DNA from: an uncultured bacterium
GTDB taxonomy: Bacteria; Verrucomicrobiota; Kiritimatiellia; RFP12; UBA1067
Direction: 5' to 3'
Length of the DNA: 58,538 nt
Assembly (NCBI GenBank): GCA_902799715.1
Contig: CADCBS010000001.1
Location: 1-58,538, forward strand
This document shows, one piece after another, positions 4,203 to 49,570 of the stretch. The position numbers and the translations under genes were made by a program. How positions within the stretch are numbered: the first letter of the stretch is position 1; each line of letters starts with the position of its first letter. Below the pieces are notes generated by a model that saw nothing but the letters and a program-made list of their open reading frames with translations, made no database searches and was not told the origin of the DNA.

Positions 4203-4409
4203 GCCCGCCGGCGAGCCGCCAGCGCCTATCCGCAAAACGCGCAGGCTTTCTTCTCCACGCCTTCTTCCGTGGATGGGGCAGCCTGCCCTCATACGCATAC
4301 TGTCGCGCCGCAGGAAAATCTCACGCGGCAGGCGCAATTGCAGCATGGTGCCGGTTTGCGTCGAAGCCGGCGGGGCATGGCCGCGCTTCGCCTTCCCCGA
4401 TCTTTGAAA

Positions 4410-4993
4410 TGAGATTGCGGTGCGTATGAAATCTGATTCGCCCCGCTCGTTGGCAAGGCGGCTTGTCCCAAAGCCACTGCAAACGGCTCGCGACCCCACA
4501 AACCTTGAAGTGAGATTACGGTGCGGATGAAATCCGATTCGCCCCGCTCGTTGGCAGGGCGGCTTGTCCCAAAGCCACTGCAAACGGCCCGCAACCCCCA
4601 CAAACCTTGAAGTGAGATTACGGTGCGTATGAAATCCGATTCGCCCCGCTCGTTGGCAGGCGGCTTGTCCCAAAGCCACTGCGAACGGCCCGCCAACCCC
4701 CAAACCTTGAAGTGAGATTACGGTGCGTATGAAATCAAGGTTGAAGGTTTTGACTTCGGACTTTGGACTTCAGACTTCAGAAATCGACCTCTGACTTTTG
4801 CCTTTCGTTTTACCCAGAAATAAATAAAAACAATCAAAGATAAACAAACTGCAAGCCATTACTGAAATGAGATTACGGTGCGGATGAAATCCTATTCGCC
4901 CCGCTCGTTGGCAGTGCGGCTTGTCCCAAAGCCACTGCAAACAGCCCGCCAACCCCACAAACCTTGAAGTGAGATTACGGTGCGTATGAAATC
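4410..4993 (+). repeat. Repeat array 1: six direct copies of the 24-nt core TGAGATTACGGTGCGTATGAAATC
   Basis: Copies start at 4410, 4511, 4613, 4713, 4868 and 4970 (periods 101, 102, 100, 155, 102). Four ~77-nt near-identical type-A modules and one 131-nt AT-rich module (4737-4867) lie between them. Confidence 0.9.
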
Positions 4994-5153
4994 AAGGTCA
5001 AGGCATAATGCGGGGGGGGGGCGGGGACCGGCGATTTCTACCGATAAATCTGCGGTCGACCGGCAATATGCGGCGGAAAATCAAAAACCGACGGCTACGG
5101 CCGGCGGCCAGAACTTGCGGTCGGGGAAAGGCCGGCAGCCGAAACCGCCGGCT

Positions 5154-5474: not shown

Positions 5475-7130
5475 CTACTTCTTTTCCTCTTGCGCCTTTT
5501 CCTGCGCTTTGTCCTGCGGCTCTACCTTAGCCTTATCCTGCGCCTTTTCTTGCGCTGCAGCCTGCGGTTTGTCCTGCGGCTTTTCCTGCGCCACGACCTT
5601 AGCCTTTTCCTGCGCCTTTTCCCTGAGCTTGCTCTTGATCACGTTGTTGCGCAAGCCCCAGCCTGCGGCGCCGAGAGCCTTGTAGAGCGAAATCAGGTTC
5701 ATCGTTATCTGTCCGCGCGATATCACGAGCGCTTCTTCGAGGGACAGCTGCGAACGCTGGGCGTCGAGGACGTTGTTGAAGTCCGCCAGTCCGTTGGAGT
5801 AGAGGTCCTGCGCTATGGAGGTGGCCTCCTTTGCGGCCTTGACGGCCTCTTCGAGCGACTGGTTGCGGTGGTACTGGCGCGTATATGCGGCGTATGCGTT
5901 GCGGGTTTCCGCCACGGCGGTGCGCACCGCGAGCTCGTACCCGTACGCGGCTTCTTTCACCTTGTGCTCGGCGATCTTCACTTTCGCGCGGATGCTGCCG
6001 CCCTGGAAGATCGGCCAGCTCACGGACGGGCCGATGGACGCGAGAAGCGAGCTGCGTTTGAAGAAGTCGGAGAACGACGCCGATTCCAGCCCGAGCGTCC
6101 CGTTGATGAAAAGCCTGGGGTAGTACATGGACTTCGCGACGCCTACGGACGCGACGGCCGACTTGAGGTTCGCCTCCGCCTGTTTTACGTCCGGGCGGTT
6201 GCGAATCCAGTCGAACGGGATTTCCGCAAGTTTCTGCGGCTCCAGCTTCCATTCGCGGTCGGGGACCGGGAGGAGTGTGTCATGGAGCGTGCCGGGCATG
6301 GCGCCGGCCAGGATCTCGAGCCCGTTCACTATAGACTCCTCGTCCGCCAGAAGGGCGGGGATCTGCGCGCGCGTCTGTTCAAGGATGTATTTCGACTGGC
6401 TTACGGCCAGCTTGTCGCCGATGCCGGAGCTGAAGCGCTTGAGCAGCAGATCGTGGGTCTCCTGCTGGAGCTTGAGGTTCGCCCGCGCGACCTTGAGGCG
6501 CTGCTGCACGGTGCGCAGGTTCACGTACTGCGCGCCGATTTCGGCGGCGAGCGACACCCACGTGTTGTCCTCGCTCCACACGGCGGCCTGGACCTGCGCC
6601 TCGGCGGACTCGACGCCGCGGCGGACGCCGCCGAAGATGTCTATTTCCCACGTGGCGTCGAATCCGGCCTGGAAATGGTCGGTATGGAGGTGTCGCCCGG
6701 CGCCGGTGGGCGTGGTCCTGCCGTATTCGGCGATTCCCGCGCCGGCGCCGCCGGAAAGCTGCGGGAAGAGGCCGGAGGCCGCCCCCAGAAGCTGCCAGCG
6801 CGCCTGCGAGAGGCGGTGCTGCGCCATCAGAAGCGAAAGGTTGTTCGTCACCGCGCGGTCGACAAGTCCGGTCAGGACGGGATCGTCGAACGCCTTCCAC
6901 CAGTCGAGCAGGGACTCGCGCGTGATGGTCTTGCGGACGTCGGCGTCGCCTTCGGCGGGCTTGAGTTCGCCGGTTTCGGTGCGGTTTGTCGTCGGCATCC
7001 CGGCGTCGGGCGCGGGCGCGGCGGGATCGGCGGATTCGGGGCGCTCCCAGTCGGGCCCCACCGACAGGCAGCCGGCGGCGGCCGCGGCGAGCGCCGCGGC
7101 GAGAAGGTATGCTTTGTTCTTCGTTTGCAT
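5475..7130 (-). CDS. RND efflux outer-membrane lipoprotein (NodT/OMF family)
   Basis: Lipobox AAAAGC near the N-terminus. Two OEP-type repeats with typical LDWWKAFDDP and LYSNGLADFNNVLDAQR motifs. Unusual K/Q/E-rich C-terminal tail. Confidence 0.9.
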   Translation of the reverse strand: MQTKNKAYLLAAALAAAAAGCLSVGPDWERPESADPAAPAPDAGMPTTNRTETGELKPAEGDADVRKTITRESLLDWWKAFDDPVLTGLVDRAVTNNLSLLMAQHRLSQARWQLLGAASGLFPQLSGGAGAGIAEYGRTTPTGAGRHLHTDHFQAGFDATWEIDIFGGVRRGVESAEAQVQAAVWSEDNTWVSLAAEIGAQYVNLRTVQQRLKVARANLKLQQETHDLLLKRFSSGIGDKLAVSQSKYILEQTRAQIPALLADEESIVNGLEILAGAMPGTLHDTLLPVPDREWKLEPQKLAEIPFDWIRNRPDVKQAEANLKSAVASVGVAKSMYYPRLFINGTLGLESASFSDFFKRSSLLASIGPSVSWPIFQGGSIRAKVKIAEHKVKEAAYGYELAVRTAVAETRNAYAAYTRQYHRNQSLEEAVKAAKEATSIAQDLYSNGLADFNNVLDAQRSQLSLEEALVISRGQITMNLISLYKALGAAGWGLRNNVIKSKLREKAQEKAKVVAQEKPQDKPQAAAQEKAQDKAKVEPQDKAQEKAQEEKK

Positions 7131-16530: not shown

Positions 16531-16635
16531 GGCCGCCGCGCGTTTTTTTGGGAAATATGCCGTCGCCCGCCGTCCAGCGCGCTCCGCAAGGCCGCCCCCC
16601 CCATTTTTGCGCATCACGCCCCCTTCACCCGGAAA

Positions 16636-17193
16636 TGAGATTACGGTTCGTATGAAATCCTGTTCCCCTTGCGCAGTGGCGACCACCCCTTCAAAAACCT
16701 GAATGAGATTACGGTGCGTATGAAATCAAATTGCGAGTGTTTCGACTCTGGACATCCGACATTCGACATCCGGCATCATGGGGAGCGAATTCCGTTTGAT
16801 GGGGAGAGTTTGGGTTTCAACCATCGTCTAACAATGGAATCGCCCGCTTCTTCCCAAAATGAGATTACGGTGCGTATGAAATCCTGTTTCCCTTGCGCAG
16901 TGGCGTCCACCCCTTCAAAAACCTGAATGAGATTTCGGTTCGTATGAATTTGATTGGCCGTGGAGAAATCGGCCGTGCAGAAGTGCAGAACGTGTGGAAA
17001 ACCGGAAGGGCGCATGCCCTCATGCGCCGCAGCCCCTCCACCCAGAAATGAGATTACGGTTCGTATGAATTTGATTGGCCGTGGAGAAATCGGCCGTACA
17101 GAAGTGCAGAACGTGTGGAAAACCGGGAGGGCGCGTGTCCTCGTGCGCCGCAGCCCCTCCACCCAGAAATGAGATTACGGTTCGTATGAAAAT
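16636..17193 (+). repeat. Repeat array 2: six direct copies of the same 24-nt core (TGAGATTACGGTKCGTATGAAATC)
   Basis: Copies start at 16636, 16704, 16860, 16928, 17049 and 17170 (periods 68, 156, 68, 121, 121). Modules: B (44 nt, twice), one 132-nt module (16728-16859), D (97 nt, twice). Confidence 0.9.
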
Positions 17194-17306
17194 GACAAGC
17201 CGCCCTGCCGGTACGCCACGATACGGCAAGAAACAACCGGCGGCGGACGATAAGGGGCGCATCGCAGGAATTTGGTGCGCGCCGCCCTTGCCGTCGCGGC
17301 GGCCGC

Positions 17307-17334
17307 TTGTATTTGGCGCGGCGTTTGGTAAAAT
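17307..17334 (+). promoter_or_regulatory. Candidate promoter giving a leaderless or near-leaderless folate-ligase mRNA
   Basis: TTGTAT-16 nt-(TGG)TAAAAT, an extended -10. The -10 ends 7 nt before ATG 17342. Confidence 0.45.
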
Positions 17335-17341
17335 ACGCAAC

Positions 17342-18016
17342 ATGAAAACCGTTCTGGGGGCAACCGGATATCGCGTACGCGGAAATCGAATGGAAAACAG
17401 TTTGACAGGACTCGGAAAGTCCGGGCTGAGGCGCGAGATGAAGGCGCGGCGGAGGGGCCTTGCGGCCGCCGGGAAGGCCGCCGCCGATGCCGTCGTCTGC
17501 GGAAAGCTGACGGCGCGGAACGTCGCCGGCGGGACGGGCGGCGCGCCAGATTCCGGCGGAGCGCTCGCCGTGTATCTTGCCACGCCGGACGAAATCGACA
17601 TCGACCCCTACATCGAGCGCATGCTTCGGGCGGGCGTGGAAACGGTCGCACCGCGCTGGAACGGCGAGACGTACGAGCTCGCGAAATTGAAGGGCCTGGA
17701 CGGGAAGAATCTCCGGACCGGACCGATGGGGATCCGCGAGCCGGCCGACGCCGACATCGTGGAGCCGGAAGACGTCCATGCGTGGATCGTCCCCGGCCTT
17801 GCGTTTACGCGGAGCGGCAAGCGGCTCGGCTATGGCGGCGGATGGTACGACCGGTTCCTCGCCTCCGCGCCGGAAGGCACCGTGAAGATCGGCGTGGCCT
17901 ATTCGTTCCAGATTGTCGACGACCTTCCCGCGGAGCCGCACGACATCACGCTTGACGGCATAGTAGACGACTCGCCAGACCATGATTCGAAAGGAGACGC
18001 CAGATGGCAGACTTGA
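17342..18016 (+). CDS. 5-formyltetrahydrofolate cyclo-ligase
   Basis: Motifs LAVYLATPDEIDIDP and WIVPGLAFTRSGKRLGYGGGWYDRFL. The track ORF starts inside the repeat array. ATG 17342 preferred; 17390 is an alternative. Confidence 0.85.
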   Translation: MKTVLGATGYRVRGNRMENSLTGLGKSGLRREMKARRRGLAAAGKAAADAVVCGKLTARNVAGGTGGAPDSGGALAVYLATPDEIDIDPYIERMLRAGVETVAPRWNGETYELAKLKGLDGKNLRTGPMGIREPADADIVEPEDVHAWIVPGLAFTRSGKRLGYGGGWYDRFLASAPEGTVKIGVAYSFQIVDDLPAEPHDITLDGIVDDSPDHDSKGDARWQT

Positions 18017-39074: not shown

Positions 39075-39224
39075 ACGTACTGCCTTGGGGTGGTGTTGCG
39101 TTGCATGGGCTGGTGCCGCACCGCCCCTGGGTGGCGGGTCTCGCGGTTCCGCTCCGGCGGGGCGGGAACGCGATCCGGGCCGGCCGTTCGCAAAAAGGGG
39201 ATAGACAGCAAAAAGGGGATAGAC

Positions 39225-42092
39225 ATGAGAAACTCGAAAAAGGCATACATGATCCTGGGACTGGCGGCCGGGTTCTGCGCACATGCGGACTGGACGCTGG
39301 ACGGATCGCTCTCTCTGGACGCCGACACGGACTGGCGCGGGCGTGGCGTCATGACAGTGCCGGCGGGAGCGACGCTGAACCTGAACGGATACGTCCTTTG
39401 GGTGGATGCAATCGCCGGGGGCGGGACGATAGCCGCCTCATCGGAGACGCAGTACCAGCTCGCCGACCTTACGGCGCCGGACGCGAGCCGCGTTTCAAGC
39501 TCTCCGCTCATAAATGCCAATTACAAGGCCATCAGCGCATTCGACAATTCGATCGAACATCCTTCGTTCGTTTTCGCGCAAGGCGATTTCAAGAACGGGA
39601 ATGCGTGGAACATCGATTACGACTTCGGCGCGGCGACACGGGTGAACTGCTACCGCATGATAGGCATGACGAAAAAAGGCTCCGAATACGGCTACCCGCT
39701 CACGCGCTGCCCGCAGGACTGGAAAATACAAGGTTCCGACGACGGCGAAACGTGGACGACGGTGGACGAACGATCCGGGCAGACGTTCGCGGTGGGCGAA
39801 TACAAAAGCTATCTTTTCAGCAAGCCGGCCCCGGCCTACAAACGCTATCGCATGGCGATATCGTCGGTAGGCGACAACAACGACGGGCGGCTGCAGTTCT
39901 ACGAACTGGAATACGGCGCGTTCGAGAACGGCCTGTACATCGACGAAACGAGCCAGGCGCATTCCGATTTTTCGGGGCTCTCGGTATCGTCCGGCGTCAC
40001 CCTGTTCTACGGCGGGAACACATCTCTCGTGCGCGACATGGACTTCACGGCGCTGCCGAACGCCCCGATCCTGCACGGCGCGATAGACCTTTGCGGACAC
40101 GACCTTTCGGTCGCGGACTTCCCGTCGCCCTACTGCTGCCTGGCCGCCGAAGTGAAGAACACGGGCGCGTTCGACCTGACGACGCCGCAAGGTGCGGTTT
40201 CGTCGACGAATACGTTCATAACCGGTCCGGCCGCGGCGTTCGGCGACTACGCCGAATGGTCCTCGGCCCATCGTCTCTGCGCGGATTTTTCGAAAGGCAT
40301 TCCGGTTTCGGTCGTATACGATTTCACGGACGCCACGGTGATAGACGCATACAGGCTGAAGCTCGGAAGCTATGCGGATTCTGCGCCGTCCCGTGCGCCG
40401 AGGGCGTGGCATTTCGAAGGCTCGAACGACAACAGCGTCTGGACGCTGCTCGACAGGAGGCCGGACGAAACAGGCTGGACGACTTCGGAAGAGCGCCAGT
40501 ACGGATTCGTGAACGACGCGGCATACAGATACTACCGCATTACATTCACCGCGACCGCTAGCGCCCCGATTCTGGAATTCTTCCGGCTGGAATACGGGTG
40601 CCTGTCATCCTCGGGCAGCGTCCGCGTCGTCGTTCCGCAGGGCAGGACGGCGAAGAACGGGACCGTAGCGCTCTCGGGGCTTCTGCGCCTGGTGAAGGAC
40701 GGGCCGGGGACGTTCGTTCCGGCGAAGACGGGCCAGTCGAACGAGGGCGGCGTGGAAATCAAGGCCGGCGTCCTGAAGTGCGGGGCGGACTACAGCACGG
40801 CGCTCGCGAAACTCGGGAGCGCCGTGATCGTGCGCGAAAACGGGACCTTCGACTTCGACGGGAGGTACAACTACATCGACCTCGATTTCATCCTCGACGG
40901 CGGAACCATCGCGAACACGGGCGCCGACATGTCCGGCCACGCGCAGCTGGCGCGCCTGAAGTTGACGAAAGATTCCGTCCTGGCCCCGTCATCGAGCCTG
41001 TTCTTCGGGCTGGACGCGGCGAACGCCGCCTACATAGACCTGGGAGGGAACAAGCTGGACGTCAAGATAGCCCCCGGGAAAGCCCTCTACATGAGAAGCA
41101 CGGAAATCACGGACGGAACACTCGAATTCTCGCAGGTCGGGTGGTTCTTCCCGGGCGGCAACAGCGGGGTCGTAGCCACGAACGGCGTGGAGATACTGTT
41201 CAACTCCGCGATCGACTCGCGGTGGACGGCGGGCTTGAAGACGTACGAAGGAAGCTTCGCGGCCGGAAACATAGCGCTCCTGTACGACAACGCAAGCAAG
41301 GTGAACAACTACGGCACGACGCCGATAGCGGTCTACGGGGCGTTCAAGCCCAAGTACGCCACGTTCCGCGGGTGCGAACTGCAGGACGGCGCGACGCTCG
41401 ACCTTTCCGAATACACGGGAACGTTCCCGGCGGAGTCGACATTCCAGAACGGCGCGACAGGAATCGCGTATGCCGCCGGGGCGGCGGTGAAAGTGAAGAC
41501 GGGCGACAAGAACATGTCGGCGCTGGCGAAGAGCTCGGATCCGTATCTTGTCAAATGGGCCGCGGGCGTGGAACCCGACGCGACGTTCGAGTTCGCGGAA
41601 GGCGAGCGCGCCGCCGCGAACGGCTACACGCTCGCGCCCGACGGAGAAGGCCTGCGCGTAGTCCCGAAGCCGGGATTCCTGATCAGGATCTCGGGCGGCA
41701 GGGACGTCAAGGTGTCCGGCGAATGGATGGCGGCGAACTGCGAAGCCTTCGGCACGGTGGCGACGGACGAGCTTGCCGGATGGTTCGGCGCGGCGGGGGC
41801 GAACGGCCTTCCGCGCTGGCAGAGCTGGATACTGGGGCTGGATCCGGCGAAGGCGGATTCGGTGATTCTGTGCACCGCCGGCGAAAGCGCGCCGGAAGAC
41901 GGCGGCGAGTTCACGGTAGGCACGAATCTGGAGATTCCCGAATATGCGGAGACGACAGTCACGGCGAAACTGGTGCGCGACGGCGGTTTCGTATGCCAGA
42001 CGAAAGAGTTTACGTCGGGCAAGGTGTCCCTGACGGGGACGCTGGGCGGGAAGAGCGTCGCGTCGTTCTCCGTATGCGTGACGCTGCCGTAG
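39225..42092 (+). CDS. Large secreted/surface protein: two discoidin (F5/8 type C)-like domains plus autotransporter-associated beta-strand repeats
   Basis: Signal peptide MRNSKKAYMILGLAAGFCAHA. Two ...YRMAISS...LQFYELEYG / ...YYRITFT...LEFFRLEYG modules. LVKDGPGTFVPAKTGQSNEGGVEIKAGVLK repeat type. Start ATG 39225; the track ORF starts upstream. Confidence 0.85.
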   Translation: MRNSKKAYMILGLAAGFCAHADWTLDGSLSLDADTDWRGRGVMTVPAGATLNLNGYVLWVDAIAGGGTIAASSETQYQLADLTAPDASRVSSSPLINANYKAISAFDNSIEHPSFVFAQGDFKNGNAWNIDYDFGAATRVNCYRMIGMTKKGSEYGYPLTRCPQDWKIQGSDDGETWTTVDERSGQTFAVGEYKSYLFSKPAPAYKRYRMAISSVGDNNDGRLQFYELEYGAFENGLYIDETSQAHSDFSGLSVSSGVTLFYGGNTSLVRDMDFTALPNAPILHGAIDLCGHDLSVADFPSPYCCLAAEVKNTGAFDLTTPQGAVSSTNTFITGPAAAFGDYAEWSSAHRLCADFSKGIPVSVVYDFTDATVIDAYRLKLGSYADSAPSRAPRAWHFEGSNDNSVWTLLDRRPDETGWTTSEERQYGFVNDAAYRYYRITFTATASAPILEFFRLEYGCLSSSGSVRVVVPQGRTAKNGTVALSGLLRLVKDGPGTFVPAKTGQSNEGGVEIKAGVLKCGADYSTALAKLGSAVIVRENGTFDFDGRYNYIDLDFILDGGTIANTGADMSGHAQLARLKLTKDSVLAPSSSLFFGLDAANAAYIDLGGNKLDVKIAPGKALYMRSTEITDGTLEFSQVGWFFPGGNSGVVATNGVEILFNSAIDSRWTAGLKTYEGSFAAGNIALLYDNASKVNNYGTTPIAVYGAFKPKYATFRGCELQDGATLDLSEYTGTFPAESTFQNGATGIAYAAGAAVKVKTGDKNMSALAKSSDPYLVKWAAGVEPDATFEFAEGERAAANGYTLAPDGEGLRVVPKPGFLIRISGGRDVKVSGEWMAANCEAFGTVATDELAGWFGAAGANGLPRWQSWILGLDPAKADSVILCTAGESAPEDGGEFTVGTNLEIPEYAETTVTAKLVRDGGFVCQTKEFTSGKVSLTGTLGGKSVASFSVCVTLP

Positions 42093-47952: not shown

Positions 47953-49497
47953 TCAATTATCGATCCACCAGTCCGGCGGAATCTGGTAGTCCATGTACCC
48001 CGTGTCGCGGTAGTCCGTCACCTTCATGTCATGGCCGACAAGGCGCAGCGAACGCTGGAATGAGACGCCGTGCGACACGGGCGAACCCCATGCGGCGTGT
48101 GCGGCGCTCATGTACATCTTCTCCCATTCATGGCCGCGCAGGTGGTGCCAGGTGGTTTCGACGATGCCGAACCCGCCGATCCCGGCGATGTAGTCGGCCA
48201 TGGGCTTCATGGTGTTGAAGTTGAGCCACGGGCATCCAGCCACGGAGAATCCCTTGTCGTGGAAATACTTCATCGTGGGCCAGTCCTTGCGCGACTCTTT
48301 CATGTTGCCGTAGGAATACTGCCAATCGCAGATAACGATGTCCCTGGAAAGCCCGTCGAGGATGGACTGGGCGTCCTTGCCGCCGAACTTGACGAATCCG
48401 GCCCAGCGGCGGTCGGACTTGTCCAGCAGCATGTCATGCCACATCATCGGACGCGCACCGCGCGATTTCACGAACTCCGCGAGGCCGTTGAAATGCCTGA
48501 CCGCCAGTTCGGCGTGCGGCGTCTTCACGCACTCGGGGCACGTCTGGGCGCCGAACGCCTCGTCGCACCCGATGTGGAAGTACGGCGGGTTGCCGAAGTC
48601 CTCGTGTATCTCGGCGATCAGCTCGCGCAGCACGCGCTGCGTCTCCGGATTGGATATGCACCAGCTCCATCCATCCAGATACGAGGCGCTGGAGGCAGGC
48701 GCGAGGGGCGCCGGCTCGAAAAGCGGCTCGTACTCTGGATGCATGTCGAGCACGCTGTGCTTTATCGTGCAGCCGCGCGAGGAGGAAGCGTGCCCGTAGC
48801 AGTTGATCTGCGGAACGAGCGTTATGCCGAGATCCTTGCCGATCGCGACGAGACGCTTCACCTCGCTCTTGGTGAGATATGCGTCAGGCCAGCACCACCA
48901 CGGATGCTTTTCGCTTTTGTACATCCCCCACGGCTCGATGATCGCGTAGTTGAACTTCAGCAGCGCCGCCAGGCGGATGGCCCGCTCGATCTGCTGTATC
49001 CTCGTTTCGGGGAAGCAGCACAGGTGGACGGCGCGGAACGCGAGGTGCGGACGGTCCTTGATCGAAAGCTTCGGCAGGATCCGGCCTTCGGTCTTGAAGG
49101 TGCCGCGCTTCGCGACCGCGAGCTGGCGGAGCGTGTACGCCGCCCAGCGCGTCCCGGCGAGCGTGTTGGCCGCGATCTTGACTCCGGTCTCGTCGGCGGT
49201 GGCGGCGTACGCTTCGTCGCCAGCCGCGGGCTTCAGCCCGGTGGCGCCGGCTTTGACCTTGGGGGAGTTCGCGCCGAACCAGGCGGCGAAATGTTCGCCG
49301 ACCCATTTCGCCGCGGCGGGGTCGGGGCATTCCACCGTCACGGAAGTCGCGGCTTCGAACGGAACGTAGACCTTGGCGTCCCAGGTGTAGGTCTGGTACG
49401 GATTCGATGGGTCGGCGGATTTCGCGACCGAGGTGGCCGGCGCGGCGGCCGCCGTCATGGAGGCAAGGCACAAGGCCAGGACGAGTTGACGTTTCAT
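47953..49497 (-). CDS. GH20-like beta-N-acetylhexosaminidase (secreted)
   Basis: Signal peptide. IKDRPHLAFRAVHLCC...NYAIIEPWG...VPQINCYGHAS...FHIGCDEA resembles a GH20 catalytic barrel. Confidence 0.8.
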   Translation of the reverse strand: MKRQLVLALCLASMTAAAAPATSVAKSADPSNPYQTYTWDAKVYVPFEAATSVTVECPDPAAAKWVGEHFAAWFGANSPKVKAGATGLKPAAGDEAYAATADETGVKIAANTLAGTRWAAYTLRQLAVAKRGTFKTEGRILPKLSIKDRPHLAFRAVHLCCFPETRIQQIERAIRLAALLKFNYAIIEPWGMYKSEKHPWWCWPDAYLTKSEVKRLVAIGKDLGITLVPQINCYGHASSSRGCTIKHSVLDMHPEYEPLFEPAPLAPASSASYLDGWSWCISNPETQRVLRELIAEIHEDFGNPPYFHIGCDEAFGAQTCPECVKTPHAELAVRHFNGLAEFVKSRGARPMMWHDMLLDKSDRRWAGFVKFGGKDAQSILDGLSRDIVICDWQYSYGNMKESRKDWPTMKYFHDKGFSVAGCPWLNFNTMKPMADYIAGIGGFGIVETTWHHLRGHEWEKMYMSAAHAAWGSPVSHGVSFQRSLRLVGHDMKVTDYRDTGYMDYQIPPDWWIDN

Positions 49498-49570
49498 GTC
49501 GGTTGTTCGCTGTTGGTTGTCGGTTGTTTGCGGTTGCCGTTTCGGGGAACCCGGTTTTGCGGATTTTCCC

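Follow-up and report, generated by a model that had tools for sequence, protein, structure and literature searches.

The 58,538-nt stretch of Kiritimatiellia DNA analyzed here, referred to as the window, contains 12 copies of a 28-nt repeat, the core (consensus GAAATGAGATTACGGTGCGTATGAAATC), all on the plus strand and in only two arrays. Six cores make up array 1, with their GAGATT starting at 4411, 4512, 4614, 4714, 4869, and 4971, and another six make up array 2, at 16637, 16705, 16861, 16929, 17050, and 17171. The cores are separated by modules, and the longest of these in their respective arrays, U1 and U2, each carry a short tract of GAC-led heptamers, or heptads. We hold with moderate confidence that these heptads are heptanucleotide simple-sequence tracts residing in strain-variable modules of mosaic arrays that resemble repetitive extragenic palindromic (REP) elements. 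Between the two arrays is an 11.6-kb block of genes on the minus strand (OEP/RND efflux, feoAB). Bovine-gut metagenome runs contain the window, and its NUDIX protein falls into a cluster at ≥90% identity with a protein from a Kiritimatiellae metagenome-assembled genome (MAG). The features of the two arrays are as follows.

4405 to 4993, plus strand: array 1, ordered core-A-core-A-core-A-core-U1-core-A-core, with A of ~73 nt
4709 to 4736, plus strand: core directly 5' of U1, GAAGTGAGATTACGGTGCGTATGAAATC
4737 to 4867, plus strand: U1, 131 nt with a GC content of 0.36, between two 28-nt cores
4737 to 4751, plus strand: U1 core-proximal segment, AAGGTTGAAGGTTTT, like the 3' flank of array 1 (4994 AAGGTCAAGGC)
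4752 to 4779, plus strand: U1 heptad tract, GACTTCG GACTTTG GACTTCA GACTTCA, the same in strain L237 and multicopy in metagenomes
4780 to 4799, plus strand: U1 degenerate continuation, GAAATC GACCTCT GACTTTT, with a one-base phase shift
4800 to 4863, plus strand: U1 A-rich island, with the lowest GC in the window, 10-nt insertion polymorphisms between strains, and no promoter-like match
4864 to 4891, plus strand: core directly 3' of U1
16632 to 17192, plus strand: array 2, ordered core-B-core-U2-core-B-core-C-core-C-core
16700 to 16727, plus strand: core directly 5' of U2
16728 to 16859, plus strand: U2, 132 nt with a GC content of 0.49, between two 28-nt cores
16728 to 16743, plus strand: U2 core-proximal segment, AAATTGCGAGTGTTTC, of which 14/16 positions are kept in L229 and the first bases are multicopy in metagenomes
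16744 to 16778, plus strand: U2 heptad tract, GACTCTG GACATCC GACATTC GACATCC GGCATCA, matched in L229 by five units in the same register (25/35 identical)
16779 to 16814, plus strand: U2 G-rich middle with two ATGGGGAG repeats, the most strain-variable part, including a 6-nt indel
16815 to 16859, plus strand: U2 conserved 3' segment, 45 columns with one difference from L229 and two from L227
16856 to 16883, plus strand: core directly 3' of U2

Anatomy and transcriptional context of U1 and U2

A preliminary description of this DNA gave U1 and U2 lengths of 131 and 132 nt, with each starting directly after a core, and these coordinates and lengths are correct. Its estimate that the two starts are about two thirds identical is also borne out (16/26 in the first 26 nt, by eye, with one gap), as is the heptad periodicity of GAC, whose positions were given correctly. 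GAC starts at 4752, 4759, 4766, 4773, 4786, and 4793 in U1 and at 16744, 16751, 16758, and 16765 in U2, and in both modules the tract begins 16-17 nt after the core and includes four in-phase GAC heptads. Tandem Repeats Finder (TRF), which was used to call tandem repeats, reports a period of 7 at 4752-4778 in U1 (GACTTCG, 3.9 copies, 85% matches) and at 16751-16777 in U2 (GACATCC, 3.9 copies). When the periodicity was tested with 20000 shuffles of each module, four identical in-phase trinucleotides at period 7 were reached in 23/20000 shuffles of U1 and 3/20000 of U2. The 3' half of U1 had been singled out as the most AT-rich part of the window, and the lowest-GC windows of 40 nt (20%, 4808-4847), 60 nt (25%, 4816-4875), and 100 nt (32%, 4776-4875) in the entire 58.5 kb are indeed all found in U1, against a window-wide 60-nt GC mean of 65% (standard deviation 7.4%). 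The GAC starts, the TRF arrays, the shuffle test, and the GC minima in U1 therefore confirm the observation.

The wider claim that U1 and U2 are homologous ~131-nt modules is not supported. Local alignment of the two gives a score of 23 against 14.4 ± 2.2 for shuffles, and none of 2000 shuffles reaches the observed alignment score over the first 55 nt, but the significant similarity is found only in the heptad block and a short lead-in, with a likeness limited to the first ~50 nt and 3' halves that are unrelated. The equal length of the two modules looks coincidental, as other strains depart from it (134 nt for the U2 of L229, 141 nt for the U1 of L237). The bases between successive GACs had been described as free, but units within a tract are 85% alike, and positions 4-5 of the U1 unit are always TT. 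Both heptad tracts are intergenic.

The start of U1 (AAGGTTGAAGG) is similar to the flank beyond the final core of array 1, and in this U1 resembles the end of an array. The 3'-terminal ~24 nt of U2 (ATCGCCCGCTTCTTCCCAAAA) recur in L229, where they extend another core to the left, and a weaker resemblance is found 5' of the first array 2 core. From these resemblances, each U module can be read as the flank of an array end, followed by a heptad tract, a stretch of unrelated sequence, and the flank of an array start. A U module is a composite, in which a short core-proximal segment is followed by a four-to-five-unit GACWTCN tract and by unrelated, fast-changing sequence, a probably slippage-prone A-rich stretch in U1 and a G-rich stretch in U2, with U2 additionally ending in the conserved left extension of the next core.

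A scan for sigma-70-like promoters and terminator-like sites found none in U1 or U2. A minus-strand promoter-like site at 4202-4174 and a terminator-like site at 5105-5087 both lie outside array 1, which is therefore situated between two minus-strand units, and no co-oriented gene follows the array. The promoter-like site of feoA (16530-16502, minus strand, with TG) lies outside array 2, which is located upstream of it, on the non-transcribed side, and ends ~110 nt before a -10 element (TAAAAT) near 17330 that was recognized by eye and not called by the scan. Judging from these predicted sites, both arrays seem to lie outside the neighboring transcripts.

This arrangement bears on two explanations for the U modules. 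In one, the A-rich island in U1 would serve the downstream cores as a promoter or leader, comparable to the leader of clustered regularly interspaced short palindromic repeats (CRISPR), and U1 would part two transcription units. No other 40-100 nt of the window are as AT-rich as the island, which is directly 5' of the core that starts the second sub-array. The start of U1 resembles the array 3' flank, and by eye a TTGCCT (4797-4802) can be paired with a weak TAAATA located 17 nt downstream. However, the promoter proposed for this island in the preliminary description finds no sigma-70-like match in the scan of U1 on either strand, a comparable island is absent from U2, 10-nt insertions change the island between strains, and the arrays are not CRISPR, as their spacers are repeated and range from 18 to 131 nt and solo cores are common. 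We regard this explanation as improbable.

The other explanation is that a TRAP-, HutP-, or cold-shock-like protein reads the heptads as a register on single-stranded RNA, for post-transcriptional control or sequestering, and we consider it very improbable, even more so than a promoter in the island. The geometry itself has a precedent, as HutP recognizes a set of three XAG triplets spaced by 4 nt, again a 3+4 arrangement (PMC2425495), and CspB is described, in work cited by PMC4679880, as able to bind heptamer repeats. The plus strand of U1 is also predicted to be unstructured (z +1.34), as expected of a protein-binding tract. On the other hand, shuffled sequences are predicted to fold as well as U1, U2, A, and C (z -0.46 to +1.34), and Rfam models at gathering and permissive thresholds recover a single tRNA from the window, with no match in array 1. 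Array 1 is bounded by the minus-strand terminator-like and promoter-like sites, array 2 is on the non-transcribed side of the feoA promoter-like site and ends short of the -10 near 17330, and no downstream terminator, antiterminator, or regulated gene was found. The tracts take either orientation relative to cores and genes, and the orientation varies between genomes. The arrays are in no RNA run examined: array 1 is absent from all of them, and the coverage in two metatranscriptome runs is limited to feoA. The TRAP-like register suggested earlier accordingly lacks both a structure signal and a leader or terminator context. The best-supported conclusion is that U1 and U2 are neither homologous 131-nt functional units nor a TRAP-like RNA element.

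Strain variation and period-7 repeats across core loci

Strain polymorphism of the arrays is extensive among contigs encoding the same flanking proteins, which represent few strains. U1 is preceded by three A units in the window, two in L218, and one in L237. Array 2 has one or two C units by strain, B is replaced by another module in L226, and array 2 is down to a single core in the run X5 strain, where 16594 and 17154 are joined in one contig. In L229, array 2 carries a diverged U2 (134 nt), a module related to the A of array 1, and an IS110-family element inside a core. The greater length of U1 in L237 (141 nt by hand count) is due to a 10-nt insertion in the A-rich part, and the heptads of U2 are less conserved between strains (25/35) than its 3' segment (one difference in 45 columns in L229). 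Metagenome contig depth in run X1 places the U1 tract at ~16-20x that of single-copy flanks and the A-rich part at ~4x, and U2 is strongly multicopy only over its first ~15-30 nt. This depth, along with GAC tetrads in other Kiritimatiellia loci, indicates that related tracts exist elsewhere, which supports the earlier description. The GAC register is kept in the orthologous loci of other strains (the five units of U2 in L229 and the tetrad of U1 in L237). The GAC at 4786 in U1 is AAC in other, related strains.

Additional features adjoin the arrays. A G10 run follows array 1 (5012-5021) and differs in length between strains, and a C8 run precedes array 2 (16596-16603). The minus strand at 4314-4346 carries a member of another repeat family, ATGCTGCAATTGCGC..GCGTGAGATTTTCC, with an end similar to the core start, and this repeat is found in tandem with a ~70-nt unit in L224 and run X1. 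A strain breakpoint is present at 4222-4224, just upstream of the promoter-like site of a 171-aa gene; here, L235-L237 have a 2.3-kb insertion, with a 3-nt overlap, that contains two unannotated genes (161 and 429 aa), and in L220-L223 a different gene, encoding a large secreted-type protein, is joined at the breakpoint.

An excess of period 7 is apparent in the 705 kb of core-bearing loci used for the repeat statistics. Period 7 is the commonest among short tandem repeats, with 32 arrays, compared to 19 of period 8, 12 of period 6, and 1-5 at periods 10-12, and its units are varied, TCTTACC/AGGTAAG, TTAGTGC, CTGACCC, AATGTAA, and GACATGA among them. Runs of at least four identical in-phase trinucleotides number 113 at period 7, compared to 8, 52, 48, 68, 18, and 15 at periods 5, 6, 8, 9, 10, and 11, respectively. 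GAC/GTC accounts for 11/113 of the period-7 blocks, equal to CGC, TAA, AGG, and GTA, and successive heptamer blocks of different motifs occupy one intergenic region in L166, L055, and L126. Non-coding period-7 arrays are found ≤300 nt from cores more often than expected (12/22 vs 27.8%, p=0.007), with no upstream or downstream polarity relative to the cores. In a census of 1.26 Mb, tracts of at least four in-phase GAC units recur, with 13 distinct tracts vs 0.19 expected, all of them in Kiritimatiellia-type loci. The tract families are listed below.

GACWTCN tracts: U1, U2, L002, L048, L052, and L055
GACATGN tract: L126
GACRRAG tracts: L164 and L191
GACNAAR tract: L166

Relative to the core strand, the tracts read GAC in the window and GTC in the MAG JAZQGX01, and they occur as inverted pairs in L164 and L191. 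A metagenome scan for a core followed by N{3,30} and three in-phase GACs returned 0 matches. Inverted pairs are frequent among heptamer tracts in general (L164 8818-8879, L191 811-873, L027 6651-6723, and L094 3198-3298) and could form long imperfect hairpins or cruciforms. Elsewhere in the window, a period-7 repeat of TGTCGGT (x4.4; ACCGACA on the gene strand) at 49497-49540 is directly 5' of a minus-strand start codon, and the gene in question has a signal-peptide-like N-terminus and an A/C-rich leader without a Shine-Dalgarno-like sequence. Repeats of other lengths include a perfect 18-nt tandem duplication at 39190-39225 (GCAAAAAGGGGATAGACA x2), followed at 39226 by the ATG of a signal-peptide-like open reading frame (ORF), and a 12/36-nt repeat at 5491-5622, in the 3' end of a gene annotated as OEP (outer-membrane efflux) in related contigs.

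Heptameric repeats are the most abundant class of long simple sequences in many bacteria, with polymerase slippage proposed as their cause (PMC4679880, PMC4692102). We infer that the heptads described here most likely arose by replication slippage as well and that they lack a sequence-specific function. They would spread and persist because the modules carrying them are copied along with the cores, and the arrays would grow, shrink, and swap modules by recombination between the directly repeated cores. In this respect, the arrays behave like mosaic repeats of the REP and bacterial interspersed mosaic element (BIME) type or the Neisseria intergenic mosaic element (NIME) type.

Several observations sit uneasily with a slippage origin. 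Twelve of the 13 GAC tracts consist of exactly four perfect units and a decaying fifth, which mostly begins with G or GA, with no spread of copy numbers, and no 7-nt indel or unit-number step was seen in the tracts among the few strains compared. In L229, U2 retains its five-unit register next to a scrambled G-rich segment, and the ~95% strain L237 has an unchanged U1 tetrad, whereas the GAC at 4786 is lost. The U1 tract is also identical at 25/27 nt to a tract beside the same core in a MAG with a much lower GC content (~53%), where the flanks are unrelated. A weaker point is that changes at GAC positions are rarer than those at spacer positions (1/27 vs 12/36, p=0.004), which we do not take as selection, since whole-unit replacement yields the same pattern. 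Such features are more easily reconciled with a binding array under constraint than with a microsatellite that slips freely.

The misfits with a neutral microsatellite, in conjunction with the precedent of omega/ParB proteins, make a heptad-binding protein the main rival to slippage. The tetrads would then be a double-stranded DNA (dsDNA) binding array for a small repeat-reading protein of the omega/ParB type, or for the orphan product of a gene found at many core loci (gene X, described below), and would function as operator, centromere-like, or element-recognition sites. The omega protein of pSM19035 recognizes WATCACW heptads whichever way they point, with a minimum of four contiguous units (PMC9499535), and the tracts reported here nearly always have four contiguous units and a partial fifth, include both direct runs and inverted pairs (L164 and L191), apparently lie outside flanking transcripts, keep their register between strains, and recur in near-identical form beside the same core in a distant MAG. 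Gene X is present in 44/120 core-bearing metagenome loci among the matches listed. However, no candidate binding protein was identified in the window, X has no recognizable DNA-binding domain and its structural model is poor, the tracts do not overlap the predicted promoters of the window, and many other heptamer motifs occur in the same settings. The spacers also differ among tract families (GACWTCN, GACATGN, and GACRRAG), and therefore only 3-4 bp would be read. On balance, we view a binding array of this kind as a possible but rather unlikely explanation for the heptads, and heptanucleotide tracts of slippage origin continue to be our preferred reading.

Cores, gene X, and IS110-family elements

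The core is present in many MAGs labeled Kiritimatiellia or Verrucomicrobia and in at least 120 metagenome contigs, and JAZQGX01 has >30 copies, frequently a few hundred bases from contig ends. In many loci, the core belongs to an 8-bp dyad (ATGAGATT-13 nt-AATCTCAT), but in the window it is only 4 bp (GATT/AATC), and no compensatory changes in the dyad were seen among the loci compared. Among the matches listed, the gene downstream of the core is co-oriented in 51 cases and convergent in 31, and the core therefore has no fixed relation to neighboring genes.

A number of candidate identities for the core were rejected. A CRISPR array is ruled out by the repeated spacers of 18-131 nt and the common solo cores. 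A sigma-70, sigma-54, extracytoplasmic function (ECF), or sigma-32 promoter is contradicted by misfitting spacings, the 31/82 convergent downstream genes, and a negative scan. A mini-ORF, MRLRCV*, recalling the RLR macrolide-arrest leaders, was dismissed on the grounds that second codon positions are where the core varies, and a coding sequence in a multicopy family adjoining contig ends was rejected on the basis of frames full of stops. Two local likenesses, of GGTGCGTATGA to the XerC arm of dif, for which the second arm is absent, and of GGTTCGTAT to a tRNA T-loop, showed no further match and were treated as chance.

Gene X, encoding ~320-450 aa, is flanked by inverted cores, for example in L080 (141-1193), L081 (330-1316), L150, and L101. 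One core encodes the C-terminus of the protein (...YENEITVRMKS), and in 22 loci among the matches listed, a third core is found in the variable linker of X, where it is read in another frame (...KRDYGAYEI...). Clustering at 90% identity divides the family into at least 1319 clusters, most of them on short contigs. Searches found no relatives of X in Pfam, NCBIfam, PHROG, or PDB, and the protein is predicted, with low confidence, to be all-helical (predicted local distance difference test [pLDDT] 55, predicted template modeling score [pTM] 0.30). Gene X was not found in the 58.5-kb window. Together with its cores, gene X looks like an undescribed mobile or selfish unit, and this core/gene-X system, which is outside the U1 and U2 coordinates, is the more novel object. 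Promoter-like sites recognized by eye at 17301-17344 and upstream of gene X (L080/L081) have their -10 box 6-7 nt before the ATG (TAAAAT-ACGCAAC-ATG and TTGCCT-17-TATCAT-GCCGCA-ATG, respectively), a spacing that suggests leaderless mRNAs in this lineage.

The IS110-family element in L229 (350-1925; PF01548 DEDD_Tnp_IS110 and PF02371 Transposase_20) splits an array 2 core, the orthologue of that at ~16929, with a left junction of ATGAGATTTC|TATGAGAGG and a right junction of CCTCTCATTTTAC|TTACGGTGCGTATGAA. In L070 (4611-4710), an IS110-like end abuts a core, and these are the only two cases. Elements of the IS110 family home into REP elements (PMC11208160), and the two cases suggest that the cores may likewise be IS110 homing targets.

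These observations allow a more specific form of the binding-array explanation, in which the (R)GAC-N3 tetrads, instead of being drifting microsatellites, would be a conserved four-site DNA array for a protein, possibly X, within an undescribed REP-like mobile system of Kiritimatiellia. This form is unlikely, more so than a binding array in general. The system envisaged would combine the 28-nt core, an X gene that is flanked and even interrupted in frame by cores, and homing by IS110 elements.

Comparison with known repeat systems

REP and BIME clusters are found in enterobacteria, the NIME arrays of Neisseria consist of dRS3 and RS units, and the REP-associated tyrosine transposase (RAYT) is an HUH Y1 transposase. 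The system described here resembles REP/BIME and NIME repeats in that a dispersed short extragenic element forms arrays with families of modules and a gene is found between inverted copies, and it resembles REP elements in the insertion of IS110-family elements into the core (PMC11208160). In contrast to REP/BIME and NIME repeats, the cores of one array all have the same direction, and the dyad is 4 bp in the window and 8 bp elsewhere, and in contrast to the REP/RAYT pairing, X is an orphan that is predicted to be all-helical and is not a recognized RAYT/HUH transposase. This wider context outweighs the U modules in importance, as it concerns an undescribed and very abundant core-plus-gene-X system in a major rumen lineage, one that shapes intergenic regions and strain-level structural variation and breaks metagenome assemblies.

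The heptads themselves share a conserved triplet and a fixed spacer with the registers of HutP and TRAP, and the 3 nt + 4 nt of HutP also gives a period of 7 (PMC2425495). However, those registers are composed of (N)AG in the terminator-bearing 5' leader of one operon, whereas here the triplet is GAC, no leader or terminator was found, and the orientation is variable. The likeness to the sites of pSM19035 omega, a ribbon-helix-helix (RHH) ParB protein that binds contiguous 7-bp WATCACW repeats, direct or inverted, with a minimum of four (PMC9499535), extends to contiguous 7-bp repeats in both arrangements and to the number of four units. The omega sites are on a plasmid, overlap par and copy-control promoters, and have a known protein, whereas the GAC tracts are chromosomal and multicopy and do not overlap the predicted promoters, and no candidate protein was identified for them.

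Heptanucleotide repeats have been reported from intergenic regions in Calothrix, as TAACTGA in Beggiatoaceae, Cyanobacteria, and Bacteroidetes, and as GGGAATC in Xanthomonas (PMC4679880, PMC4692102). Like these, the repeats reported here are head-to-tail 7-nt units that are intergenic, occur at many loci with several motifs per region, and include some inverted pairs. They differ in that the GACWTCN tracts are short, nearly always of four units, and located beside a 28-nt core, in that they are not preferentially just upstream of start codons, and in that no 7-nt length polymorphism was seen among the few strains. If the heptads are indeed simple-sequence tracts, Kiritimatiellia would join the Cyanobacteria, Beggiatoaceae, and Xanthomonas among the lineages with abundant intergenic heptamers, and the fixed four-unit length that sets its tracts apart would be a useful clue to the cause and role of heptamer repeats.

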